From an uncultured Acidimicrobiia bacterium (lineage in GTDB: Bacteria; Acidobacteriota; Terriglobia; Versatilivoradales; Versatilivoraceae), in the NCBI GenBank assembly GCA_963791795.1, contig CAWBTP010000015.1:42822-106821 (forward strand): DNA of 64,000 bases. The letters are read 5' to 3'. The notes under the pieces are model-generated. The model had not been told where the DNA came from and ran no database searches. It worked only from the letters and a program-made list of their open reading frames with translations. Of this stretch, positions 28,974 to 41,786 are shown piece after piece. The first letter of the stretch is position 1. The number at the start of each line of letters is the position of its first letter. The position numbers and the translations under genes are program-made.

Positions 28974-29798
28974 ATGATTGTTCACCTGATCGATGGCACC
29001 TACGAGCTGTTTCGTCACTTTTATGGGATCCGCCGGGCCAAGGGAGCCGATCCTCCTTATGGCGCGGTGGGAGGTGTGCTGGGTACAGTTGCTGAGATGA
29101 TCGAGGGCGGTGCGACGCACATTGGGGTCGCGACGGATCACGTTATCGAGTCGTTTCGCAACGACCTGTGGCCAGAGTACAAGACCAGCGACGGCATCGA
29201 ACCTGTGCTGCACGCACAGTTCGCTCCTCTCGAGGAGGCGCTTGCCGCGATGGGCGTGGCTGTTTGGCCGATGGTGGAACTGGAGGCCGATGACGCGCTC
29301 GCTTCCGCAGCTCACCTCGCAGCGCGGGACGTGGGTGTTCAGAAGGTATGCATCTGGACTCCAGATAAAGACCTCGCGCAATGTGTCGTTGACCAGCGCG
29401 TGGTGCAGATGGATCGCAGGAGCGGGCAGATTCGCGATGCCGCGGGTGTTTTGACCAAGTTCGGCGTGACGCCGGCACACATCCCTGACTATCTTGCCCT
29501 GGTGGGTGATGCCGCAGACGGCTATCCTGGAATTGCGGGCTACGGACCCAAGACAGCCGCCAGGCTGATAAACCGTTACGGACCGCTTGAGCAATTCCCT
29601 CCGGAGATTCTCAAAGACAACCTCGAACGGGCACTCCTCTTCAAGAGGCTCGCAACACTGCGAATCGACGCACCTCTTTTTGGCGACGCGGACGAATTGC
29701 GCTGGCAGCGAGCCACCGCGTCCTTTGAGTCTATGGCTGAGAAAATAGGGAGCCCACGTCTGGCAAAGCGCGTGCGCGATCTGGAGAAGCGATTGTAG
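28974..29798 (+). CDS. 5'-3' exonuclease (FEN-like PIN domain + H3TH)
   Basis: MIVHLIDGTYELFRHFY.. PIN-like N-terminus with acidic cluster. GYPGIAGYGPKTAARLI helix-3-turn-helix motif. The long antisense ORF 28842..29918 is rejected. Confidence 0.75.
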   Translation: MIVHLIDGTYELFRHFYGIRRAKGADPPYGAVGGVLGTVAEMIEGGATHIGVATDHVIESFRNDLWPEYKTSDGIEPVLHAQFAPLEEALAAMGVAVWPMVELEADDALASAAHLAARDVGVQKVCIWTPDKDLAQCVVDQRVVQMDRRSGQIRDAAGVLTKFGVTPAHIPDYLALVGDAADGYPGIAGYGPKTAARLINRYGPLEQFPPEILKDNLERALLFKRLATLRIDAPLFGDADELRWQRATASFESMAEKIGSPRLAKRVRDLEKRL

Positions 29799-30104
29799 GT
29801 GAGGACCGTACTTCGCTTGACGGTGCGGCGTGTCGACAACGATTCGTGACTGCTCAGATTCCGCTAGTGAGTACCTGCCCAGCGCAAGCTCTCCACAAAA
29901 CGTCATCACCGCTCTCACATTTGCTCATTTCACCGCCGTTATGGTCGCTCGCGCGGACGCGACAATGCGTGGCGCACAACGATCTCCTGGCCAGATAGCC
30001 GCCCCCGGTCAGTTTTGAACAGCACATGTTTTGGGTTCGGCTTATTGATAGAGGGACAGGCAGTTGCTTGCCTGCACGTTTCTATCAAGGAAAAGGAGTT
30101 ATCT

Positions 30105-30776
30105 ATGGCTGGTAAGAACACAGCAGTATTCGGAATCTATACGACCCGGCGTGGCGTGGAGAATGCTGTTGACTCGCTGAAGGCTGATGGATTCCGGAAC
30201 GCAGACATCTCAGTTCTGTTACCGGAGAATGAAGGCACAAAGGACTTCGCACACGAGAAGCAAACCAAGGCGCCTGAAGGGGCTGTGGCTGGAGCTGGCA
30301 CCGGCGCGGTGCTTGGTGGAACGCTGGGCTGGTTGACTGGGATCGGAGCATTGGCCATCCCGGGTCTGGGACCCTTTATTGCAGCCGGGCCTATTATGGC
30401 CGCCCTCGCGGGTGCAGGAGTGGGTGGCGCTCTCGGAGGAGTGACTGGCGCTTTGGTTGGAATGGGCATTCCCGAGTATGAGGCTAAGAGATACGAAGGC
30501 CGCATTAAAGACGGCGGCATTCTGCTCTCTGTCCACTGCGATGATTCGTCCTGGGTGAAGCGGGCCAAAAAGATCCTGGAACGGACCGGCGCAAACGACA
30601 TTTCGTCGGCAGGTGAAGCCAGTGCTGATTTTGCCAAGAGCGACAGGCCTGCTCCGCGGAGAGCTCAGCGTGCGGCGTCCAGCGTCACCAACTACAGCGG
30701 GGTTGAACGTCGGCAATTCGACCCGGACTATCGATACAATGGTGTTGAAAGACGTCATGAGGCACCGTATGTGTAA
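30105..30776 (+). CDS. general stress protein, Gsp17M/YflT-like domain with central glycine-zipper membrane segment
   Basis: ATG 30105 6 nt after AAAGGAG. N-terminal ..AVFGIYTTRRGVENAVDSLKADGFRNADISVL (YflT/DUF1269-like). Middle GTGAVLGGTLGWLTGIGALAIPGLGPFIAAGPIMAALAGAGVGGALGG glycine zipper. C-terminal second half-domain. Confidence 0.6.
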   Translation: MAGKNTAVFGIYTTRRGVENAVDSLKADGFRNADISVLLPENEGTKDFAHEKQTKAPEGAVAGAGTGAVLGGTLGWLTGIGALAIPGLGPFIAAGPIMAALAGAGVGGALGGVTGALVGMGIPEYEAKRYEGRIKDGGILLSVHCDDSSWVKRAKKILERTGANDISSAGEASADFAKSDRPAPRRAQRAASSVTNYSGVERRQFDPDYRYNGVERRHEAPYV

Positions 30777-30965
30777 GTGAATCCCGGAAACGAGAAAACT
30801 CCCCAGGACACTGGGGAGTTTTTCACTTTCAAGACAGAGACACATTAACTCACGTCTCTCTATCATGCTTTCCTGTCACACTGAGATTGTTGACCACCTT
30901 ACGAACTCCGCTCACGGCTTGCGCGATTTTTTCCGCAAGTAGTTTTTCGGTTCGAGCGGAAACCA
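30643..30965. repeat. copy 1 of ~320-bp direct repeat (Gsp 3' end + bidirectional terminator + orphan 3' fragment of BON gene)
   Basis: About 85% identical to 39375-39695. Contains the intact 3' end of the Gsp-like gene, the ACTCCCCA-GGACAC-TGGGGAGT terminator, and on the minus strand an out-of-context remnant encoding ..VVSARTEKLLAEKIAQAVSGVRKVVNNLSVTGKHDRET* (homolog of the BON protein C-terminus). Confidence 0.7.
30794..30824. terminator. bidirectional rho-independent terminator
   Basis: GAAAA-ACTCCCCA-GGACAC-TGGGGAGT-TTTTT: 8-bp GC-rich stem flanked by A-run and T-run. Confidence 0.6.
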
Positions 30966-30967
30966 CC

Positions 30968-32677
30968 TTACTTTGAGTTCTTGCCAGAGGGCACACTTCC
31001 AAGATTAGCCAGCATCTCCCGAATCATTCTCGAATCCGGATTGAACTCTAGAGCCCGGAGGAGATGCTCTCTCGCCAGAAAGGCATTTCCAGTGCGGAGC
31101 CGAGCCAACGCCAGATAGACGCTGGCTGTCTCCAGCCCAGGATTTCGCTTCAACGCATCCTGCCACAGCGAGATCGCTTCTTGAAACTGCTGCTGCTGAG
31201 CCAACAAGGCGCCCAGATTGAGAAGCGCAACAATTTCTGACGGGTCAACTGCGAGAGTTCTCCTATAGAGTTGCGTCGCCTTGTTCCGGTCTTGCTTCCC
31301 ATCATGGTGAAATGCGAGTTGAAGCAGGGCTGGTGCGTCACTTGAAAGCTGATTCTCGACGCCCTTTAGCAATTCGAAACTCCTCTCGGCAAACGCCCGA
31401 TGCTTCTGCACAGTAGCGACTTCCGCATAAGCAAGGCCCAGATCTCTTGAAGTGGCGGCAGAAAAGCCGAAAGGTTGCAGAGTCGTTCCTGACACCTTGA
31501 CGCTTCCTTTTGTCTGGGGGCGAAGCCGTCGAGGTATGGAATGATCAGTGAACACCGTATGCCCGACGTCTACGGTCGGACTCTTGGGCATGTGGCAGGC
31601 CAAGCAATTGTCAGCCGCCTGCGCGCGCGTTTCACGGCTGGCCTTGCAGCCCTCGTTTTCGTGGCAGGCCAGACATTTCCGGCGGTAGTGCTCAACTCGC
31701 GCCGAAGCAGCAATCGTCTTGTGGACGCTGTGGCAGCTTCCACACCAAAGTCGGGTTTCACTCGCCTGCTGACACCGGCTCTGCGAAAGCTTCTCAACAT
31801 GACTGGTCACGGTGAGGTTGTCCGTTTGTTTGTCTGACCAGACAAACGAAAGCACATGTTCCGAGAGAAGGTCTCCCGACCTGAAAGCCAATTTGTCACT
31901 TCCAGCTTTGCGGATGCGGGCTTCGCCGCTCAAATGGCAGTTGGAGCAAACACTGTCGCGACGAGATGGCTCGAGTTTGACCGGGTTGACGATATCAGGC
32001 AGCCCCATGGGATCCTGATTCTGCTTGCGGGACACATGACCCGCCCCCGATCCGTGACAGCGTTCACAACTGACACCTTCCTCAAGAAATGGCGGTTCCG
32101 TGAAGCCATTTTGTGTACCCGCGATTGGCTTCAGCCGGCTGGCGTGGCACTCCAGGCAGCGGACTTCGATGGGACGAGACAAGTGGGCGTGGTCGTACTC
32201 TTGAAAGCCTGGAGAGATATCCCACTTCCGTGTTTGAGCGTAATAAGAGACCGGCGCTTGAAAGAGGTGGCCCTCCACTACGGAGATGTAGCTGCGGCCA
32301 GCAGCGCCCGAACCAATGAAGTAGTCCAGACGGCGCTTGCCGCGCAGGTCGTCCTGCTGCCTCCGCTGGTTGCTCCGCAGGAACTCGAAAACTGTTTGAT
32401 TCTTCTCCTTGGAAATTCGATAGGTCACGCCTGACTTCGGGTGAGCAAAGGTGGCTTGACCTAGGCTCTCCTGGAAGCCCAAACCGTCCATTCGCCCGCT
32501 ACTGAGTGCCATCGGTGTCTGCGCGTAGCTCTTGGCGATTTCCGCATGGCAGCTCGTACAAACGGTGCTGCCTATGTAGCCATCGCGAGGCTGGTCTCTT
32601 GATTGCGGATGGAGAGTTGCTGTGAGTACCGACGCAGAAAGTGAAAAGCTGAAACAGCAGAAACGAAAGAAACGCAT
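30968..32677 (-). CDS. secreted multiheme c-type cytochrome (7 CxxCH) fused to C-terminal TPR domain
   Basis: Signal peptide. CTSCH, CLECH, CERCH, CSNCH, CGSCH, CLACH, CLACH heme-binding motifs. C-terminal ~170 aa form TPR repeats (..ATQLYRRTLAVDP..ALLNLGALLAQQQQFQEAISLWQDALKRNP..). Confidence 0.85.
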   Translation of the reverse strand: MRFFRFCCFSFSLSASVLTATLHPQSRDQPRDGYIGSTVCTSCHAEIAKSYAQTPMALSSGRMDGLGFQESLGQATFAHPKSGVTYRISKEKNQTVFEFLRSNQRRQQDDLRGKRRLDYFIGSGAAGRSYISVVEGHLFQAPVSYYAQTRKWDISPGFQEYDHAHLSRPIEVRCLECHASRLKPIAGTQNGFTEPPFLEEGVSCERCHGSGAGHVSRKQNQDPMGLPDIVNPVKLEPSRRDSVCSNCHLSGEARIRKAGSDKLAFRSGDLLSEHVLSFVWSDKQTDNLTVTSHVEKLSQSRCQQASETRLWCGSCHSVHKTIAASARVEHYRRKCLACHENEGCKASRETRAQAADNCLACHMPKSPTVDVGHTVFTDHSIPRRLRPQTKGSVKVSGTTLQPFGFSAATSRDLGLAYAEVATVQKHRAFAERSFELLKGVENQLSSDAPALLQLAFHHDGKQDRNKATQLYRRTLAVDPSEIVALLNLGALLAQQQQFQEAISLWQDALKRNPGLETASVYLALARLRTGNAFLAREHLLRALEFNPDSRMIREMLANLGSVPSGKNSK

Positions 32678-32930
32678 GTATGATCGGCAGGCGTTTGATT
32701 CGAGGAATCAAACCTCAACGCTGTGCTGGCCGCTCCCGTGGTGCGACTTTCGAGTTGCCTCAAGCCCGGACTAGAAAGTCCAGCGTCTACAGGCTAGAAG
32801 CCTGCACCACAAGACTGACTCTCGTCGCTTCAGGTTGTGGTGCGGGCGTCTCGCCTGCACGAAGAGTGTAGGAACCACAGGGAGCGGCCATCCGCTCCCG
32901 CTACAGAGTCGCTGTGGCTCAATCTTATCC

Positions 32931-35900
32931 TTAGAAGGTGTATCTCAAACCGATCTGACCAATGCGTGGGCCGGAAACAAGGCTCACCTGGCCGAAACGA
33001 GGATCCAACACACCGGTGACGATCCCGGAAACGATGTGGCGGTTGAAGACGTTGAGCAACTCGCCCGTGATGGTGATTTCGTGTCCTTCCCGTATTTTCA
33101 GGACCTTTCGAATCCCAAGATCCTCAGACACACTCCAGGGATCGCGGATGTCGGAAGTAAACCCGGCGTTCCCCAGGGTAAAAGCACGATGATCGGAAAA
33201 CACTCCAGATTGCACATAGCGGTGATCCGAGTAGTTGCCTTGCGCGATGGCGGCGAAATTCAACTTATCACGATCAAATCCAGCCAGCAGGGAACCGCCA
33301 TCCGGATTGGAGAGATCGGGACGACCAGCCCGTCCATTCCAGCCCGGGATACCACTACCCGTAAAGCGTAAAGGTGTGCCGCTGGCATAGTTCCCGATGA
33401 AATTCAGATTCCATCCGCCCACGATCGCGTCCAAAACGCCGTTCATATTGCTGAAGAACGTTCTACCGCGACCAATCGGGATGTCGTAGATGATCGCCAT
33501 CTTGATAGTGTGGGTCTGATCGTTGTCTGCAATGCCCTTTTCCAAGTTGAGATTGTAGTAGTCGACCGGGCGGTTGGCGTTATCACCTCTTAGCGTGGAC
33601 TCCATGTTTTGAATCGTCTTCGACAGGTTGTAGTTAGCATAGATATTGAGCCCCCTCGAAGACCGTTTGTTCAGGATGAGCTGCATCGAGTGGTAGGTGG
33701 AGTGTCCGATAGGCGCGTTGTAAGTCGTCAGCCCAATACCATTCCTGGCCAGATGCGGAAACGGCACTAGCGCCTGCCAGAGTTGGCCGCCGGCGAAGGC
33801 TGGATAGGGCAATCGCGACAGCCCGAATCGCTGCGCATCGGCGTCCGTATTGAGAATTGAAACCAGGTTGGTCCCGAGGCTCAGATGCTTGGCATCGAGC
33901 TGGTTTTTTTGCGCGATGTCATTCACCGCCCAGAGTCCGGAAGATTTGTTTCCAACGTATCCGACATCGATGGTCATCGTCGACGTGACTTCGCGCTGGA
34001 TGTTCAAATTCCACTGCTGCGTAAAGGGCACCTTGCCAGCGCCCGGATCCCAATGGGTTACGCCACCCGCTCTCCATGAAGTGGGATCCAACGCCGGTGC
34101 AATGTAGTTACCCGGAAATCCACTGTCCCAATTGAACACAGAAGTATAGTTCAGCGGATTATTCACGTTGTTCGTGCCTGCGAATCCGCGGTTGAACGGA
34201 GTTCCCGAGAATCCGTTGAAGACCACCGGGCTGTAGAAGATGCCGTAGGCCGAACGGATCGAAGTTTTTCCGTCAGGCGAGTAGGCAAAGCCAAACCGCG
34301 GGCTAAAGTTCTTCTTGTCACTTGCAACGAACGTGCGGCTACCGGTTCGCCCAGCCCCTTCCCCGGCAAAAACCACAGCGCCTTTCATGCCCGTCAGAGG
34401 GTCTATCAGGTCGAGATTGAAATCCGATGTCCGATCAGCCACTTCCACTGGAGGTGGTTGAAATTCGTAGCGGAGTCCGATGTTCAATGTAAGCTTCGGC
34501 GACACCTTGAAGTCATCCTGAACAAAGCCGCTGTAATAGTACGTCCTTCCACCAGACACCAGCGGCGCTCCCACGCTGGCGTTGTTGACGCCGCCGAGCA
34601 AGAACGAAGCAAAAGAATGGCCGACAAAATTCACGCCCGGAATTCCGGTCTGCTCCGACGTGAAATTGAAGGTTCCGGCAAGATTTCCACGCGGCCGGTT
34701 GTTCTGCTGGTTCCCGCGAAAGTCGACACCGAATTTCAAGTTGTGCTTGCCTTTCGTCCAACTCACAGTGTCACCAATCGCCCAGGAGTTGTAAGCTTGA
34801 AAGTCATCCTGAGGATCGCCAATGGCATCGAAGGCGACTCCAGCGGGTCCAGCGCCCCAGTTAATTCTGGGACACGGTCCATCCTGCAAGATACCAGTGA
34901 TACCCAACAAAGCTCCGCAACCATCCTCCACATGAGCCGAACGGTTCGGATTTCCCATGCGATTGTAGGAAATGATGAAGTGATTCAGAACGGTCGGTGA
35001 AACCGTGAAGTCGTGTGCGATTCTCGCGAGCCAGGAATTGACAGTCTGCCTCCGGGCTGCCGATAGCGGCCCTCCTTCCTCTTCTCTCGGGTCCCACGGC
35101 CCGCCGGCATCCAACAGCAATCGGGGACGGATGTTGCGAGCCAGGCTGCCGCTGATCCTCTGACGTTGGGAAATGTTATGGTCGATCTTGAAGGACCATT
35201 GATTCTGATCGAAGAACGGAGTCTGCGTAATCGGGAACAGATTGTTGGCCACCAGGGCACTGCTGACCGGAGCATAGTATTGCTTGCCTATGGCGCCGAT
35301 TCTCTTCGAAACCTGGCTGATGCGATCGGCAGGAATGATGTTTCCCGGAAATGGATCTGCCACGAATTGGCCGTTCACCTGGCGCAGAGTCCGTGGATCA
35401 TAGATGGCCCCGCGAAAGATGGGACGGCCCAGGGCATCGACACCGTTTTGTGTGGTGGTCAGCAGCCGACTGAGGTTTCCATCGTACATCTCCACCTGTG
35501 GAACGCTGCGGTTCGGTGCGCCAAAAGCGAGCTCCCGTTGCCGGTATCGCTCGAGGGCAAAGAAGAAAAACGACTTGTCTTTGCCGTTGTAGATCTTCGG
35601 TATGTAGATGGGAGCGCCGAAGCTGCCGCCAAAATTCTGTTTACGCTCCTGAGCGCGCGGTCGGCCTGTGGCGTTGTTGGCGAAACTGTTTGCATTGAAG
35701 GCTTCATTACGCAACTGTCCGAACAAACTGCCGTGAGGCGCGTTCTGGCCGGAACGCATCACAAAGTTAAAAACGCCGCCACCGGTTCTTCCATACTCTG
35801 CGGAGAGACCGCTGGTCTGGATCTTGAACTCTTCGAGAGCTTCCATCGAAACGCTGCTCTCTCCGAAATGCCCCGACAGGTATGTTGTCACCGACGCTCC

Positions 35901-36464
35901 ATCCAGCAATACTTCCTTTGAGAACGCCGGGGATCCATTGATGCGCGACGTCCAGGTGTTGCCCTCCACTCCGGGAGTCAACCGGTAAGCAAAGTTTTCC
36001 GGCTGTCGCCCTCCACCAAAGGAGAGCGGCAAGTCAAAAATGTAGTCGCGCACAACGGTAGTCCCTACTTCAGGCGTCTCAGTCTGCAGCAGGGCTGCCT
36101 CAGCCACGACGCTAATCACTTCCTTCTCTGAGCCCACCTCAAGCTGGGCATCCAGGCGGAGAACCTGCGAAATCTGAAGTGTAATATTCTCGCGTTGCTG
36201 AACCTTGAAACCGGGAGCTTCAAATTTGATTGAGTAGGTTCCGATAGGAAGATTGGGCACGTTGTACTGGCCAACGTCGTTTGTCTGGGTTGGATAGACA
36301 GCATTCGTTCCGGTCATAGTGATCACGACGCTGGCGTTTGGAATCGCTGCGCCACTCGCATCCAACACGGTTCCGGTGAGGGTGCCGCGATCCAGTTGGG
36401 CGTAACCTGGGCTAGCGACCAACAACACGATAAGTACAAGTCCACGAAGACCCTTGTTGCTCAT
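32931..36464 (-). CDS. TonB-dependent receptor with N-terminal carboxypeptidase-regulatory-like domain
   Basis: 1177 aa, AAGGAGG RBS, signal peptide. N-terminal ..GTLTGTVLDASGAAIPNASVVIT.. CarboxypepD_reg domain, plug and 22-strand barrel. C-terminal ..GLRYTF with terminal Phe. Confidence 0.9.
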   Translation of the reverse strand: MSNKGLRGLVLIVLLVASPGYAQLDRGTLTGTVLDASGAAIPNASVVITMTGTNAVYPTQTNDVGQYNVPNLPIGTYSIKFEAPGFKVQQRENITLQISQVLRLDAQLEVGSEKEVISVVAEAALLQTETPEVGTTVVRDYIFDLPLSFGGGRQPENFAYRLTPGVEGNTWTSRINGSPAFSKEVLLDGASVTTYLSGHFGESSVSMEALEEFKIQTSGLSAEYGRTGGGVFNFVMRSGQNAPHGSLFGQLRNEAFNANSFANNATGRPRAQERKQNFGGSFGAPIYIPKIYNGKDKSFFFFALERYRQRELAFGAPNRSVPQVEMYDGNLSRLLTTTQNGVDALGRPIFRGAIYDPRTLRQVNGQFVADPFPGNIIPADRISQVSKRIGAIGKQYYAPVSSALVANNLFPITQTPFFDQNQWSFKIDHNISQRQRISGSLARNIRPRLLLDAGGPWDPREEEGGPLSAARRQTVNSWLARIAHDFTVSPTVLNHFIISYNRMGNPNRSAHVEDGCGALLGITGILQDGPCPRINWGAGPAGVAFDAIGDPQDDFQAYNSWAIGDTVSWTKGKHNLKFGVDFRGNQQNNRPRGNLAGTFNFTSEQTGIPGVNFVGHSFASFLLGGVNNASVGAPLVSGGRTYYYSGFVQDDFKVSPKLTLNIGLRYEFQPPPVEVADRTSDFNLDLIDPLTGMKGAVVFAGEGAGRTGSRTFVASDKKNFSPRFGFAYSPDGKTSIRSAYGIFYSPVVFNGFSGTPFNRGFAGTNNVNNPLNYTSVFNWDSGFPGNYIAPALDPTSWRAGGVTHWDPGAGKVPFTQQWNLNIQREVTSTMTIDVGYVGNKSSGLWAVNDIAQKNQLDAKHLSLGTNLVSILNTDADAQRFGLSRLPYPAFAGGQLWQALVPFPHLARNGIGLTTYNAPIGHSTYHSMQLILNKRSSRGLNIYANYNLSKTIQNMESTLRGDNANRPVDYYNLNLEKGIADNDQTHTIKMAIIYDIPIGRGRTFFSNMNGVLDAIVGGWNLNFIGNYASGTPLRFTGSGIPGWNGRAGRPDLSNPDGGSLLAGFDRDKLNFAAIAQGNYSDHRYVQSGVFSDHRAFTLGNAGFTSDIRDPWSVSEDLGIRKVLKIREGHEITITGELLNVFNRHIVSGIVTGVLDPRFGQVSLVSGPRIGQIGLRYTF

Positions 36465-36851
36465 GGCAAACTCCTCCTTGGTCTAAACGGAGCAATAGAG
36501 AGTGTGAAAAACCCACGCAAAGAGAACCGGCACGAGAGTGGGAGGGCGAGTTCCAGTCGTCTGGCCGGCGCGAACGGATCTGCGATCTAATGATTGCCTA
36601 AGTAACTTTAGGCTATCAGCTAAGGACCAGCCGGGCAAGAGCAAATCAGCACCAGAGACGGGACCTTGTAGGACACTATCACGATGGTCGCCGATGTGAG
36701 AGCCAACCGGTCCAGTAACATCGTAATGAACCAAGCTTGGAATTCTAGTTTCACGTTCGGTCTAGTGCGAGTGGTGTTGTGTTACCCTCATTAGAACGTG
36801 TCTGAAAATCGCTGAGCCAGAGCGCGCAGGGATGCATTTGGTGTCTTGGTT

Positions 36852-36918
36852 CGTCATTCCCGCGAAAGCGGGAATCCAGCCTGGATTCCGGCTCGCGCTG
36901 CGCTTGGCCGGAATGACG
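36852..36918 (+). promoter_or_regulatory. nested palindrome / possible structured leader element upstream of the ASPIC gene
   Basis: Outer 9-bp inverted repeat CGTCATTCC..GGAATGACG enclosing ATTCCCGC-GAAA-GCGGGAAT, GGAATCCA-GCC-TGGATTCC and CCGGC..GCCGG hairpins that overlap one another (mutually exclusive folds). Lies 68-134 nt upstream of the ATG at 36986. Confidence 0.35.
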
Positions 36919-36985
36919 CAAGTTGTCTACCGAACCTCAGCCTGCAACTCCCAGGCCAGGTTTTCAAACACCCTTAGCGAACTCC

Positions 36986-39349
36986 ATGCGTCGAATTTCC
37001 TGGATCGTCATTTTCTCCTGGCTGGCTACCACTCTGGTTGCCCAGTCTGAGCTGGACAGAATTCGAGAGCTCATTCGCGTCGGCGAGGTTCAGCAGGCCC
37101 GCCAGCGGCTGGAACCTCTGCTCTTGAAAGCAGGCGGGAATCAGGCTGAGCTCCACTACCTGATGGGCGTGATCGCACTCCAGCTCGAAGACTACGCAAA
37201 AGCTGTTTCCCACCTTAGAATCGCGACCCAAGCTGATCCAAACAGCGCAGCAATCCTGAAGCTTCTTGTCAAAGCCCAGTTGCTGTCAGGGCAAAGACTC
37301 GAAGTCGAAGCCTCGTTGCAGAAAGCAGCTCGTCTGTCACCTGATGATGCTGAGGTCTGGTCCCTATTGGGCAGGCTCTATCAGGAATCGAGCCGTTTCA
37401 AGGAGGCTGTTCAGCCATTGGAGCGGGCCGTCGAGCTCAATCCATCGGACGTCTCAGGTTGGGCATCGCTGGCCTTCACCTGGTTTGGATTGGGCGATGC
37501 GCAAAAGGCCGTGGGTTTGTTCGAGCGGGCGGTTGCCGAGAACGAACGGAGTCCGAAGCCAATGGCAGCGCCGCACGCTTCGTTTGCCACAGTGCTGCTA
37601 CGGCTCGGACGGGTGAATGAGGCAGATAAACAGATTCGCAAGGCTTCGACGATCAATCCCCGCGATCGCACGTTACTGGAAGCCCAACGAGCGCTGCAGG
37701 TACGTTCCCGGCTGGATCTCGTGCCCTCGACGAAATCTGAGGTCTTGCCCTCACCTCGATTCCAAGACGTCGCGACGCGAGCGGGATTGGACATCCGGCT
37801 GGAACACTCGCCGACGGCGGCCAAACATCAGATCGAAACTATGCCTGGAGGAGTGGCTGTGCTGGACTTCGACCAGGACGGATTCATGGACATCTACTTC
37901 ACGAACGGCGCCGAAAGTCCCTCACTGCGCAAGAACAGCCCGCGCTACAACAACCGCCTATACAGGAACAATGGGAATCTGACATTCAGCGACGTCACGG
38001 CACGAGCAGGCGTGGCGAGTGCAGGATACACGATGGCCGCCGCTGCGTCTGATTTTGACAACGATGGCTATCCGGACCTCTTTGTTGCCGGAGTAGATCG
38101 AAACTTTCTCTATCACAACAATCGAGATGGAAGCTTTACGGATATAGCGAAATCATCAAACCTTGTCCGACCTCATCCACAGTTCGGCAAGATGTGGGGG
38201 ATTCATGGCGCCTGGTTCGACTATGACCGGGACGGCTGGCTCGACTTGCTGGTGGTGAACTATTGCCGATGGAACCCTGAAACGGAGCCCTTCTGTGGCG
38301 ACACACGCCCCGGCCATCGCACCTATTGTCATCCTGGAAAGTACGGCCCTCTTCCAAACCAGCTCTTTCGCAATAAGGGTGATGGAACGTTTGTAGATGT
38401 ATCCATCTCTTCAGGCATAGGCAAGCACCTGGGAAAGGGCATGGGCGCTGCAGTCGCGGATGTAGACAACGACGGCTGGCCTGATCTCTTTGTCGCTAAC
38501 GATTCGGAACCCAACTTTCTTTTTCGTAACCTGGGTAATGGCGGGTTCGAGGAAATTGCCGCCGCCAGGGGTGTGGCGTTCAACCAGTTTGGAACACCCG
38601 TCTCCTCAATGGGCGTCGACTTTCGCGATTTCGACAATGATGGTCGCCCCGATCTCTTTGTCACCACTCTCTCCAACGAAGGGTTTCTCCTTTTCCGCAA
38701 TCGGGAAGGTTTGTTTGATGATATTGCCGACCCAGCTCGGGTGGGCTTGGCAAGTCTGCCCTTCAGCGGATGGAGCAACGTGATTGCGGATTTCAACAAC
38801 GATGGGTGGAAGGACTTGTTTTCAGCCAATGGACATGTTCTTGACAATATCGAGCTCACTCAGAGTCGGACTTATCGTCAGGCGAATTCTCTCTTCCTGA
38901 ATGCAGGTGACGGCGTCTTCCGGGATGTCTCGTCTGAGGTTGGTCTCGAGCGGAAGGCCGCGCATCGCGGAGCGGCCCTGGCAGACTTCAACAACGACGG
39001 GAAAATGGACCTTGTCGTAACAGCGCTCGGAGAGACTCCGAGCCTGCTCCAGAACCAAGGGGTTGATGCCAGTCATTGGCTACTGGTGGTACTGCATGGA
39101 GGCAAGTCGAATCGGGAAGGATTAGGCGCCGTGGTAAAGGCCGAGACTGAGGATGGGCGGCTGCTGTGGAACCACGCAACAAGCTCTGTGGGGTATGCTT
39201 CTTCCAGCGATCCACGCATTCATTTCGGTTTGGGAAAGAGCAAAGCTGTCAGGCGTCTTGAAATCCAATGGCCGAGCGGAATTCATCAGGTGCTACAGAG
39301 AGTGAGTGCGGATCAGATTATCGCGATAACAGAGCCGACACCGAAGTAA
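36986..39349 (+). CDS. secreted CRTAC1-like protein: TPR + FG-GAP/VCBS repeats + ASPIC/UnbV domain
   Basis: ATG 36986 (MRRISWIVIFSWLATTLVAQS signal peptide). N-terminal TPR region, repeated DxDxDGxxD FG-GAP motifs (DFDQDGFMDIYF, DFDNDGYPDLFV, DVDNDGWPDLFV, DFNNDGWKDLF..). C-terminal ..LGAVVKAETEDGRLLWNHATSSVGYASSSDPRIHFGLG.. ASPIC/UnbV. Confidence 0.85.
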   Translation: MRRISWIVIFSWLATTLVAQSELDRIRELIRVGEVQQARQRLEPLLLKAGGNQAELHYLMGVIALQLEDYAKAVSHLRIATQADPNSAAILKLLVKAQLLSGQRLEVEASLQKAARLSPDDAEVWSLLGRLYQESSRFKEAVQPLERAVELNPSDVSGWASLAFTWFGLGDAQKAVGLFERAVAENERSPKPMAAPHASFATVLLRLGRVNEADKQIRKASTINPRDRTLLEAQRALQVRSRLDLVPSTKSEVLPSPRFQDVATRAGLDIRLEHSPTAAKHQIETMPGGVAVLDFDQDGFMDIYFTNGAESPSLRKNSPRYNNRLYRNNGNLTFSDVTARAGVASAGYTMAAAASDFDNDGYPDLFVAGVDRNFLYHNNRDGSFTDIAKSSNLVRPHPQFGKMWGIHGAWFDYDRDGWLDLLVVNYCRWNPETEPFCGDTRPGHRTYCHPGKYGPLPNQLFRNKGDGTFVDVSISSGIGKHLGKGMGAAVADVDNDGWPDLFVANDSEPNFLFRNLGNGGFEEIAAARGVAFNQFGTPVSSMGVDFRDFDNDGRPDLFVTTLSNEGFLLFRNREGLFDDIADPARVGLASLPFSGWSNVIADFNNDGWKDLFSANGHVLDNIELTQSRTYRQANSLFLNAGDGVFRDVSSEVGLERKAAHRGAALADFNNDGKMDLVVTALGETPSLLQNQGVDASHWLLVVLHGGKSNREGLGAVVKAETEDGRLLWNHATSSVGYASSSDPRIHFGLGKSKAVRRLEIQWPSGIHQVLQRVSADQIIAITEPTPK

Positions 39350-39374
39350 CGGCCCCGAATGCAGTCCAAGCAGC

Positions 39375-39471
39375 GACAGGCCGGCTGCGCGGAGGGTTCA
39401 GCGTGCGGCGTCCAGCGTCACCAGATACAGTGGGGTCGAACGTCGGCAACCCATCGATACAACGGTGTTGA
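39375..39471 (+). pseudogene. frame-disrupted remnant of Gsp17M-like gene 3' end
   Basis: Aligns with 30643-30776 (..RRAQRAASSVTNYSGVERRQFDPDYRYNGVERRHEAPYV*) but carries a ~10-nt deletion. One frame reads ..RRPASPDTVGSNVGN.., the other ..RYNGVDRRAEAPCV*. It begins 26 nt after the ASPIC gene stop. Confidence 0.45.
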
Positions 39472-39513
39472 TAGACGTGCTGAGGCACCGTGTGTGTAAG
39501 TGAACTCCGGGAG

Positions 39514-39548
39514 CGAAAAAAACTCCCCAGGACACTGGGGAGTTTTTA
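39514..39548. terminator. bidirectional rho-independent terminator (second copy)
   Basis: GAAAAAA-ACTCCCCA-GGACAC-TGGGGAGT-TTTT, identical stem-loop to 30794-30824. Confidence 0.6.
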
Positions 39549-39572
39549 GTGTCAAGATAGAGAGGCACTGAC

Positions 39573-40430
39573 TCATGCCTGTCTATCGTTTTCTCCTATC
39601 ACATTGAGATTGTTAACGACCTTTCGAACGCCATTCACGGTTTGCGCGATCTTTTCGGCCAGAAGTTTTTCGGCCCGAGATGAAACGGAGCCCGCCAGGG
39701 TGACAGTCCCATCGAGTGAATGGATTTGAAGCGTGTTGAGAGAAAATGCCTTTGTAGAATAAAGCTCAAACTCGACTTTCTTGGCGAGTTTGTCTTCCGG
39801 TGCCGCGTTTGTGGAGGTCGTTGTAACACCGAGATTATTGACCACGCCAACCACGCCTTGAACTCCCCAGGCAATTTGTTGCGCCAGGATCTTCTGGCTT
39901 TCCGTCTCAACTGTTCCGTTAAGATTCACCTTCCGTTCCTTGACGACTAGCGTAATCGGGCTGTCCTTCAACTCCGGGTTCTTACGAAGAGCTTCCTCAG
40001 TAATCATTTTGATCTCCAAGTCGGCTACGCGGTCAGTGAGGCGACTTGCTTCGGGATTCGGGCGCGTTCCTGGATCGACAATCAAGTTGTTCTGGAGTTC
40101 CTTGACGCCCGAGGTGTCCTTCGCAATCACTCCGGCCATTGCTTTGACTTCTTCCGAAGGTACTTGGCCGGCAAGGCTGACAACTCCTTGCTTGGTGTTT
40201 ACTTCGATGTCGAACGGCGAGACATGCTTTGACAGCATCAGGGCTGTCTTCACCTTGGTTGAGGTCGCCGCGTCTTCAGAGGTTTCCTTAATCGAGGACC
40301 AGGCAGCTTTAACCGATCCCTTGTTCCCCTGCACGTAGTACCAGACTCCCCCAACAATGAGGAAGACCACGACTACAGCCAGAATTGTCCCGAGGACGCT
40401 TTGGCCTTTTTGATCAGCGGATACGCTCAT
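39573..40430 (-). CDS. OsmY-like protein with N-terminal TM anchor and three BON domains
   Basis: 285 aa. TM helix VLGTILAVVVVFLIVGGVWYYV, then three BON repeats (..KTALMLS..V.IEVNTKQGVVSLAGQV.., ..ITLVVKERKVNLNGTV.., ..LQIHSLDGTVTLAGSV..). Confidence 0.85.
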   Translation of the reverse strand: MSVSADQKGQSVLGTILAVVVVFLIVGGVWYYVQGNKGSVKAAWSSIKETSEDAATSTKVKTALMLSKHVSPFDIEVNTKQGVVSLAGQVPSEEVKAMAGVIAKDTSGVKELQNNLIVDPGTRPNPEASRLTDRVADLEIKMITEEALRKNPELKDSPITLVVKERKVNLNGTVETESQKILAQQIAWGVQGVVGVVNNLGVTTTSTNAAPEDKLAKKVEFELYSTKAFSLNTLQIHSLDGTVTLAGSVSSRAEKLLAEKIAQTVNGVRKVVNNLNVIGENDRQA

Positions 40431-40610
40431 GATTTTCTCTCCAAATATTAAGGATTTGCATTGAACTTAGCAGAGAGACGGCACCAGCGCTGGTCAAAAT
40501 TGCTCTCACCCCCCGACTGACCAGACGGGTTCAATTATGCACAGCGCTACCTCGGCTATTCCGCAAAAGTAGAAATGTCGTGCTGGGAATCTTAAATGAG
40601 CGAGGTGCTT

Positions 40611-41786
40611 ATGAAGATCCATCATCGAGTGCTTTTTTTATGTGCAATCCTATTGACCCTACCCGGCTTGTCCCCGGAAGCTCTGGGGCAAGGTCGCAAC
40701 CGGCAGTTGACCGGAACTTGGAATCTCGATGCGTCCCGCAGCGATGACGTTCAAGGCGCAATCGATCGAGCCAACATTAATCGCAATACGAACACGGACC
40801 GCATTCGGCAGAGATTGGAAAATCGGCTTCAGCCACCCGACCGGCTGTCGATTGAGCAATCCGACCGACGCGTTACGCTCGCATCCTCCACAGCGCCGCA
40901 AGTGAGCTTTGATGCCGATGGCAGAGCTCGCTCGGAAACGAACGCGAATGGACGCACCATACAAACGACGGCTAGCTTGAGTGGTTCGGTGTTAACCATT
41001 CGCACTCAAGGCGATCGTGCCAACGATTTTCAGGTCACGTTTCGACCGGTAGACAACGGTCGTAGTCTTCAAGTGACCCGTAGGATCTACAATGATCGAT
41101 TGACTCAACCACTCGAGACGCTCAGTTTCTACAATCGCGTTTCGGATGTGGCAGAATTCGGTGGTTACTCGAACACGTATCCAAATACAACCACGGCAAC
41201 CCGTAGTGACAGCCGACGCCGCAGCAACGTCTCCAACATCCCTGCCGACACCATACTGACTGCGTCGCTAAATCAGTCTCTCCACACCAAAGACGCCAAG
41301 GACGGAGATCGCTTTACGCTAACGGTGGTATCGCCTGCGGAATACAGCGGCGCTGTCATTGAAGGCTACCTGACTCGTGTCGAACGCTCGGGAAGGGTTA
41401 CTGGCAGTCCAGAAATCGGGTTTGAGTTCGATACCATCCGCCTGCGCAATAGTGGCACCTACGACTTCTCGGGCTACATTGAGCAAGTGCGTACACCGAC
41501 TGGCAACAAGGTGAAGGTAGATAACGAAGGCAGCGTCAAGGAAAAGAGCGGGCAAACGGAGCGCACTGTGGTGCGGAGTGGCATCGGCGCGGCCATTGGC
41601 GCCATCATTGGCGGCATTACCGGCGGTGGTGAAGGCGCTGCCATCGGTGCGGCTGTAGGTGCCGGAGCAGGCGCTGGCTCGGTCATTGTTCAGGGACGCG
41701 ATGATCTCCAACTCGACAATGGTACGGAGTTCACCATCCACACCAGCAACACTACTCGCATCAGCTCCAGCAGTTTCACCCGATAG
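40611..41786 (+). CDS. secreted hypothetical protein with C-terminal glycine-zipper segment
   Basis: Second ATG (40611) has GAGGTG 6 nt upstream. Signal peptide [27 protein letters not shown]-terminal [33 protein letters not shown] glycine zipper. No recognisable enzymatic motifs. Confidence 0.5.

Follow-up and report, generated by a model that had tools for sequence, protein, structure and literature searches.

Genomic islands and prophages that integrate at the 3' ends of genes by means of an integrase carry a replacement end for the gene that they enter, as exemplified by e14 in icd of Escherichia coli and by the islands residing in tRNA genes. Insertions attributed to fork stalling and template switching or microhomology-mediated break-induced replication (FoSTeS/MMBIR), or to capture of fragments at breaks, have been described chiefly in eukaryotes and, among bacteria, in experimental systems. 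Here, we analyze a 64-kb stretch of contig CAWBTP010000015.1 (assembly GCA_963791795.1; hereafter, the window) from an uncultured bacterium placed by GTDB in the Versatilivoraceae of the Acidobacteriota, in which two direct repeats bracket a block of three genes that encode a multiheme cytochrome, a TonB-receptor-like outer-membrane barrel and a CRTAC1-like protein with an ASPIC domain (hereafter, the cargo). Each repeat comprises the 3' ends of two convergent genes, those of a YflT/ActD-like protein and of a protein with BON domains, together with the predicted bidirectional terminator between them. Comparison with related contigs documents an insertion with defined boundaries and a duplicated target, an age bracketed by empty and filled sites, a one-sided pattern of decay and a lack of mobility functions. 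The explanation that we favor, with a probability of about 0.6, is that native DNA was inserted by illegitimate recombination and that a long stretch of the target was duplicated in the process.

Anatomy of the duplicated junction

Pairwise alignment and an independent repeat search both recovered two copies of the repeat, ~325 bp in length and in direct orientation, with a start-to-start spacing of 8723-8733 nt and 8,407 bp containing three complete genes between them. The components of the two junctions are the following:

30639-30964, no strand: repeat copy 1, consisting of the functional YflT-like 3' end, the terminator and an orphan BON 3' fragment (alignment, repeat search)
30105-30776, plus strand: intact YflT/ActD-like gene, 223 aa (Pfam ActD, 1.4e-08; YflT, 2.2e-07)
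30795-30823, both strands: predicted terminator copy 1 (AAAACTCCCCAGGACACTGGGGAGTTTTT), with hairpin and U-tract folds at z of -3.3 and -4.8
30850-30963, minus strand: orphan BON 3' fragment, translated as 37 codons (VSARTEKLLAEKIAQAVSGVRKVVNNLSVTGKHDRET) plus a stop codon, without a start codon
30964-30967, no strand: junction J1, the left end of the cargo, 3-4 nt past the cytochrome stop codon (microhomology, 0-1 nt)
39350-39371, no strand: junction J2, a 22-nt spacer from the stop codon of the ASPIC gene to repeat copy 2, ending in CCAAG(C)
39372-39686, no strand: repeat copy 2, consisting of a decayed YflT-like 3' fragment, the terminator and the functional BON 3' end (alignment, repeat search)
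39372-39499, plus strand: YflT-like 3' fragment of copy 2, its frame broken by a 10-nt deletion
39516-39547, both strands: predicted terminator copy 2, with hairpin and U-tract folds at z of -3.0 and -4.0
39573-40430, minus strand: intact BON gene, OsmY-like with three BON domains, 285 aa (Pfam BON, 1e-42, in 3 stretches)

The two copies are 84% identical when gaps are ignored and 81% identical over 326 nt in a blastn alignment (E = 1e-85), and a blastn search of the window with copy 1 as the query found no third copy. To each copy, the YflT/ActD-like gene contributes 138 nt and the BON gene 114 nt of 3'-terminal sequence, on either side of ~75 nt of intergenic DNA, and the alignment spans both gene ends and the intergenic DNA instead of being limited to the terminator hairpin. 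In copy 1, the BON fragment is out of frame with the cytochrome gene, the stop codon of which lies at 30968-30970, 4 nt away. An earlier note on this DNA had proposed two direct repeats of ~320 bp with about 85% identity, an out-of-frame BON orphan in copy 1 and a frame-broken YflT-like remnant with a deletion of ~10 nt in copy 2; alignment and translation bear out this anatomy and the overall gene order, with the repeat bounds shifted by 1-9 nt.

The start of the YflT/ActD-like gene was taken at the ATG at 30105, the mechanical open reading frame beginning with a TTG at 30015; in relatives, the corresponding calls are 219-223 aa long. The name Gsp17M-like, previously given to this gene, fits its YflT match, YflT being the family of general stress protein 17M. 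For the BON protein, 1328 homologs were retrieved.

The core of the terminator, ACTCCCCAGGACACTGGGGAGT with its A and T runs, is the same in both copies and occurs twice in the whole window. Direct folding of both copies on both strands revealed a stem of 11-13 bp with a centroid energy of -19 to -22 kcal/mol, a hairpin that a simple consensus terminator scanner did not list. The element has the hallmarks of an intrinsic bidirectional terminator, namely, a G+C-rich hairpin, a U-tract on both strands and a location between convergent genes, and the hairpins are predicted on this basis to terminate transcription. Copy 1 lies 3' of the YflT-like gene on the plus strand and of the receptor-cytochrome unit on the minus strand, and copy 2 lies 3' of the ASPIC gene on the plus strand and of the BON gene on the minus strand. 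Across seven copies of the repeat, a single site, located in the loop, varies within the ~31 nt of the terminator, compared with ~21 of 46 in the other intergenic columns. Both terminator copies therefore appear to be kept by selection, which makes sense because each of them now lies 3' of two converging transcription units. An exact-pattern search of JGI metagenomes with the terminator of this clade returned 0 matches, so that no near-identical empty site came from that source.

Empty and filled sites in relatives

Relatives were chosen as contigs encoding a graded series of BON homologs (the comparison loci are designated L002, L003 and so on). An empty site, at which the BON gene and the convergent YflT/ActD-like gene are 75-87 nt apart, was found in L092 (BON protein 89% identical at the amino acid level), in L003, L004 and L005 (87%), and in L006 (82%). 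The filled site with both repeats is complete in the window and in L002 and L010, and its BON-side end alone is present in L011 and in a short-read Logan contig, each of which stops inside the cargo; in the Logan contig, the ASPIC gene lies 224 nt from the BON gene. Within the filled-site clade, defined by the clustering of BON proteins at an identity of at least 90%, all contigs examined carry the insertion, and the extent of two further BON-carrying contigs suggests that these also carry the cytochrome gene. Samples containing this clade are represented by assemblies ERZ25039565 and ERZ25039469 and by run ERR11593889. Thus, the empty site predicted by the earlier note exists in three lineages, the filled configuration is not common to all relatives, and the cargo is an insertion into a once-contiguous convergent junction. 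Beyond the metagenomic contigs, a scan of a reference-genome collection with the BON protein gave a single match, from Roseiflexaceae, with 27% identity.

In multiple alignments, the two copies track the sequence of the empty sites up to 30964 and from 39372 onward, and the cargo occupies the interval. When L092 is aligned with the window, the match to the BON arm runs up to position 2235 and that to the YflT arm starts at position 1914; the 322-bp overlap (positions 1914-2235) is precisely the segment duplicated in the window. At J1, at most 1 nt is common to the donor-type and target sequences: in L007, which carries an 88%-identical cytochrome gene in another context, homology to the window ends at J1, 3 nt past the stop codon, and, judged against four relatives, the cytochrome C terminus (...GKNSK, then the stop codon) is intact. 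At J2, the target carries CCAAG immediately to the left of the duplicated segment, matching the end of the spacer and consistent with a microhomology of up to 5 nt. From the distribution of empty and filled sites, the insertion dates to after the split from the L092-like lineage (82-86% DNA identity) and before the radiation of the clade to which the window belongs (95-97% DNA identity).

Across the clade, the majority sequences of copy 1 and copy 2 differ at 13 of ~335 sites, about 4%, compared with a divergence of 14-18% from the nearest empty lineage. Clade-specific states, for example in the terminator loop, are common to both copies and differ from all three empty lineages. Given these shared states and the 13 differences, the duplicated DNA was therefore native and the copies were near-identical at the start, and, on the aligned sequences, the copies would have differed by at most ~4% when the clade radiated. 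Among the majority differences that can be polarized, the derived state is in a non-functional half, that is, the YflT-like fragment of copy 2 with its downstream spacer or the BON fragment of copy 1, at all positions except alignment column 76. Substitutions specific to the window follow the same asymmetry, affecting 5 of 254 sites in the functional halves versus 17 of 244 sites in the fragments (Fisher p = 0.008), and the 10-nt deletion in copy 2 is confined to the window lineage, being absent from L002, L010 and L011. Identity between the two copies of one genome stands at 83.7% for the window, 90.8% for L002 and 95.3% for L010.

Some variants are distributed across the copies. At alignment columns 113 and 116, variants are common to both copies within one genome, and columns 321, 324 and 325 read TGC in copy 1 of the window but GAT in its copy 2, with GAT found in copy 1 of L002, so that the variants are swapped. 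These patterns suggest that gene conversion has acted between the copies and that strains have recombined, metagenome consensus effects being another possibility. The use of repeat divergence as a clock was dropped, since the patterns shared across copies point to gene conversion. Excision of the cargo by recombination between the repeats, as envisaged in the earlier note, is possible in principle; because the longest identical tracts between the copies in the window are just 29 and 26 nt, loss of the cargo through homologous recombination may be expected to be rare there.

The surroundings of the junction vary as well. Homology of the window to L003 and L006 ends at ~30005, ~100 nt upstream of the YflT-like gene, and what follows is a 5'-3' exonuclease gene in the window, small open reading frames and a BNR protein in L003, and a ferritin in L006. 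The YflT/BON pair thus borders a second, independent synteny break at ~30005. Elsewhere in the window, 87 bp at 1474-1560 are 93% identical to L006 (14659-14744), the rest of L006 being 72-83% identical; this segment is not a tRNA.

Mode of insertion

In a Pfam scan, none of the three cargo open reading frames and neither of the two neighboring genes contained a recombinase domain, in agreement with the previous observation that no integrase or transposase is present, and within the cargo Pfam matches were confined to its three genes; with stop codons 4 and 22 nt from its two ends, the cargo has no room for a recombinase gene. No terminal inverted repeats were detected, the best end-to-end inverted match being 6 nt, a length equaled or exceeded in 79% of shuffles. 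Comparison of base composition and codon usage, a check proposed in the earlier note, gave no sign of foreign origin: GC content is flat, GC content at third codon positions (GC3) is similar in the cargo and the window, and the tetranucleotide distance of the cargo is 0.0082, compared with a window mean of 0.0086. A plasmid collection yielded no match to the cargo in a distant blastn search, which is weak negative evidence, and a tRNA scan found no tRNA in the window.

Several classes of mobile element were considered and set aside. An island targeting a tRNA gene is ruled out, the window having no such gene. A site-specific integrase-mediated island or prophage would share the direct repeats and the empty site; the recombinase, the foreign composition and the mobile-element genes are all lacking. 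A transposon or insertion sequence fits no better, there being no transposase and no terminal inverted repeats, and the duplication being 325 bp long. The structure is a one-off insertion that duplicated an unusually long stretch of its target, and it is not a mobile element.

Under the favored explanation, the ancestor of one species-level clade of Acidobacteriota would have taken in an 8.4-kb piece of native chromosomal DNA at the terminator region between the YflT-like and BON genes through illegitimate recombination, either non-homologous or microhomology-mediated. The inserted piece would have consisted of exactly three complete genes and the promoter region internal to them, and 325 bp of the target would have been copied in the process, leaving both host genes whole and placing a terminator on each side of the cargo. 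A single event would be the most economical account, and we infer the molecular route to have been either template switching or break repair. In the former case, two template switches during replication would suffice, with the polymerase copying through the junction, jumping to the donor locus and returning 325 bp upstream. In the latter case, a fragment would have been captured at a break whose ends were staggered by 325 nt and later filled in. The orphan gene ends have since degenerated into pseudogene remnants, probably with some gene conversion between the copies, and the terminators appear to have been retained by selection.

Several points weigh against this account. The cargo may have been moved, duplicated or imported from a close relative, and the CCAAG microhomology at J2 is putative. 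The direct evidence is compatible with one-step and two-step routes alike. Target duplications of hundreds of base pairs are, to our knowledge, unusual in bacteria. Moreover, the variants shared between the copies across genomes imply later exchange, which blurs the estimate of the starting divergence, and several of the comparison loci come from long-read metagenome assemblies that contain frameshifts and may mix strains.

An origin in two steps, which we consider unlikely, would lead to the same final order as the one-step route: either the 325-bp segment was first duplicated in tandem and the cargo then inserted at the joint, or a large tandem duplication first extended from the junction as far as a neighboring cargo locus, the second joint being made by a later deletion. 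Tandem duplications are frequent in bacteria, a near-identical receptor gene occurs in another context (L008, see below), and the presence of the receptor gene alone on a 4-kb short-read contig would fit a second copy of the module in the same genome. Such an origin, however, calls for two independent events with coinciding breakpoints, the insertion falling exactly at the joint of the duplication, and the expected intermediate, a bare duplicated junction without cargo, is found in none of the three empty lineages. The version with a large duplication would, for short distances, predict a second copy of the cargo on the BON side, but none lies there within the 64-kb window: repeat copy 1 matched just the two known copies in the blastn search, and no cargo-sized repeat was seen. 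The earlier note had mentioned duplication of the junction linked to insertion as its alternative, and this is closer to the evidence than the mechanism that it preferred, namely, Campbell-type integration of a circle carrying the three genes and a 325-bp copy of the junction through a single homologous crossover. The topology, with an intact gene, a repeat, the cargo, a second repeat and a second intact gene, is exactly that of a single crossover, empty sites exist, and repeated excision and re-integration at shifting crossovers could generate swapped variants such as those at columns 321, 324 and 325, which may equally be due to gene conversion, recombination between strains or metagenome consensus effects. 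Nevertheless, Campbell-type integration is improbable in our view: the cargo contains no replication, transfer or recombinase gene and no space for one, has no plasmid match and no terminal repeats, and is native in composition; furthermore, with copies that differed by no more than ~4% early on, the homology did not come from a diverged foreign element. In addition, the circle would already have to hold both novel joints, so that their origin is not explained but pushed back to an earlier host.

Finally, the contig is derived from a metagenome, and repeats of this size can mislead assemblers, so that two loci might have been joined through their shared repeat into a chimera. This possibility is refuted for practical purposes by independent assemblies: the same order, joints and repeats occur in long-read assemblies from different samples (complete in L002 and L010, on the BON side in L011), the short-read Logan contig places the ASPIC gene 224 nt from the BON gene, and the two copies in the window, being 16% diverged, would not collapse.

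Cargo genes and comparison with described systems

The cargo consists of two genes on the minus strand and one on the plus strand, separated by a divergent intergenic region:

30968-32677, minus strand: seven-heme c-type cytochrome with C-terminal TPR repeats and a signal peptide, 569 aa (7 CXXCH motifs, Pfam, NCBIfam)
32931-36464, minus strand: TonB-receptor-like outer-membrane barrel with CarboxypepD_reg and OMP_b-brl_4 domains, 1177 aa (Pfam, 1e-176)
36465-36985, no strand: intergenic DNA separating the divergent receptor and ASPIC genes, with the presumed promoters and a hairpin with a GAAA tetraloop at 36855-36876
36986-39349, plus strand: TPR/FG-GAP/UnbV_ASPIC (CRTAC1-like) protein, 787 aa (Pfam; PDB 9etn)

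Pfam searches confirmed the domain assignments that had been made from the sequence, and the count of CXXCH motifs confirmed the seven hemes. The heme region of the cytochrome scored 43.1 bits against a cutoff of 192 for DmsE and 51.5 bits against a cutoff of 325 for GSU2203; these scores and the presence of seven CXXCH motifs instead of ten heme sites rule out a decaheme cytochrome of the MtrA/DmsE type. The receptor matched OMP_b-brl_4 with 590 bits and TonB_dep_Rec_b-barrel with 30.7 bits (cutoff 27), and its match to the Plug domain was weak (17.1 bits, cutoff 23.9); a sequence search found no solved structure related to it. The start of the ASPIC gene was taken at the ATG at 36986, the mechanical open reading frame beginning with a TTG at 36923, and the product belongs to the CRTAC1/ASPIC-UnbV family, with matches to FG-GAP_3 (2.4e-58), UnbV_ASPIC (7.3e-19) and the structure of cartilage acidic protein 1 (9etn, 4e-24). 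One may reasonably guess that the cargo takes part in redox chemistry of the envelope that is coupled to uptake.

The structured leader claimed for the ASPIC gene found no support, the 5' region having no Rfam match and a fold z of -1.5; at a permissive threshold, Rfam searches over 29500-41000 returned a chance miRNA-like match alone (E = 0.55). The 5' region of the ASPIC gene (36855-36920) does contain a hairpin with a perfect 8-bp stem and a GAAA loop (CATTCCCGCGAAAGCGGGAATC) and an adjoining second palindrome (CATTCCGGC...GCCGGAATG); the hairpin occurs once in the window and has no Rfam match, and the stability of the entire region is unremarkable.

Homologs of the cytochrome-TPR protein number 1270 at E <= 1e-20, mostly from metagenome-assembled genomes of Acidobacteriota. 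The receptor-to-cytochrome order is found in L007, L009 and L012, and in L008 (ERZ25039547 contig_74917) it is accompanied by the divergent ASPIC gene; all four modules reside in other genomic contexts and lack the repeats, and the cargo genes thus do occur elsewhere in relatives, as the earlier note suggested one should look for. In L093-L095, three contigs of metagenome-assembled genomes from NCBI, the cytochrome (73% identical at the amino acid level) and ASPIC (80%) genes are divergent partners, and an AAA_14/DUF4143 ATPase gene occupies the slot of the receptor (L093, 6803-12403; also in L094 and L095). Among more distant homologs, 19 of the 54 loci with enough flanking sequence have a receptor-like (14) or an ASPIC-like (8) gene within 1.5 kb, in varying order. 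Overall, the pairing is recurrent, and the operon-like unit of three genes is local to close relatives. The description of the cargo as a coherent module therefore stands in part: several relatives have the cytochrome and ASPIC genes as a divergent pair, but the three-gene order is limited to close ones, and an unrelated ATPase gene takes the place of the receptor in L093-L095. A literature search found no paper describing a cytochrome-TPR/receptor/ASPIC module.

Between the window (33000-36300) and L008 (5600-9090), in which the module has a different genomic context, the receptor genes share 96-100% DNA identity, compared with 69-85% for the flanking cytochrome genes and 64-79% for the flanking ASPIC genes. 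The window cytochrome is closest to that of L007 (88%), the receptor of which is just 90% identical. With a near-identical receptor between diverged neighbors, the cargo is thus a mosaic, and these comparisons indicate that the receptor gene alone was exchanged or homogenized recently between two modules. In Logan ERR11593889, a 4003-bp contig encodes the exact receptor protein as its sole gene, with 370 nt upstream and 100 nt downstream; this lone receptor is weak evidence that would fit a second copy of the module in the same genome.

Where the cytochrome genes are 79-88% identical at the DNA level (L007, from 2908; L008, from 11045; L009, from 5543; L012, from 3095), homology stops at the stop codon. 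Downstream of the gene, blastn and tblastx found no extended similarity among L007, L008, L009 and L012, within the limits of short contigs, and L009 and L012 have a 17-nt motif in common. An interpretation of the five downstream contexts as a sign of repeated mobility was softened in view of the short contigs and of this shared motif. Downstream of the module in L008 (11300-17500), a run of small open reading frames, a ParG-like gene and a fragment of a phage integrase suggest that this module adjoins the remnant of a mobile element.

These observations leave room for a more far-reaching idea, which we regard as a long shot: the cytochrome-TPR/CRTAC1-like pair might form the core of an undescribed envelope system of Acidobacteriota with an exchangeable middle slot, held by a TonB-receptor-like barrel in the window and L008 or by an AAA_14/DUF4143 ATPase in L093-L095, and such modules might be relocated and re-assorted as cassettes by a specific mechanism. 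Such a scheme would fit with a receptor that is 96-100% identical where the other genes differ by 15-35%, with ends at stop codons and with the 325-bp target duplication, and in that case, the insertion between the YflT-like and BON genes would be one visible product of the process and not an accident.

Overall, the locus represents a natural case, bracketed by empty and filled relatives, of the gain of several genes without mobile-element machinery. A long target duplication leaves the host genes intact and gives the units of the cargo ready-made terminators that are then preserved by selection. The case also cautions that long direct repeats around a block of genes do not prove an integrative element. 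The widespread and uncharacterized pairing of a multiheme cytochrome-TPR protein with CRTAC1-like and TonB-receptor-like barrel proteins in Acidobacteriota may deserve study, the function of the cargo and the exchange of the receptor being the aspects most worth attention.

Among described systems, the cargo resembles the porin-cytochrome complexes of the MtrA/MtrB and DmsE type in that the gene for a multiheme cytochrome of the periplasmic type stands beside that for a large outer-membrane barrel; it differs in having seven hemes rather than ten, a TPR domain and an OMP_b-brl_4 barrel in place of MtrB, with scores far below the family cutoffs. With integrase-dependent islands, the locus shares an insert between direct repeats of a duplicated gene 3' end, empty sites in relatives, and an intact host gene with a decaying fragment at the far end. 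Unlike in such islands, there is no integrase or mobile-element gene, the 325-bp repeat comprises two gene ends and a terminator, the repeated DNA is native to the lineage, and the cargo is native in composition and ends at stop codons. The order of genes, repeats and cargo is identical to that generated by Campbell integration, as with suicide plasmids, yet there is no evidence for a circle or replicon, and two non-homologous joints are left unexplained by this process. Transposons likewise duplicate their target on both sides of the insert, but these duplications are 2-15 bp long, compared with 325 bp here, where neither a transposase nor terminal inverted repeats are present. We are aware of no natural case, fixed in a bacterial lineage, in which a 325-bp duplication has doubled a bidirectional terminator. 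With insertions of the FoSTeS/MMBIR or break-capture type, the locus has in common a native insert, a duplicated target, joints with zero to a few nucleotides of microhomology and the lack of a dedicated enzyme.

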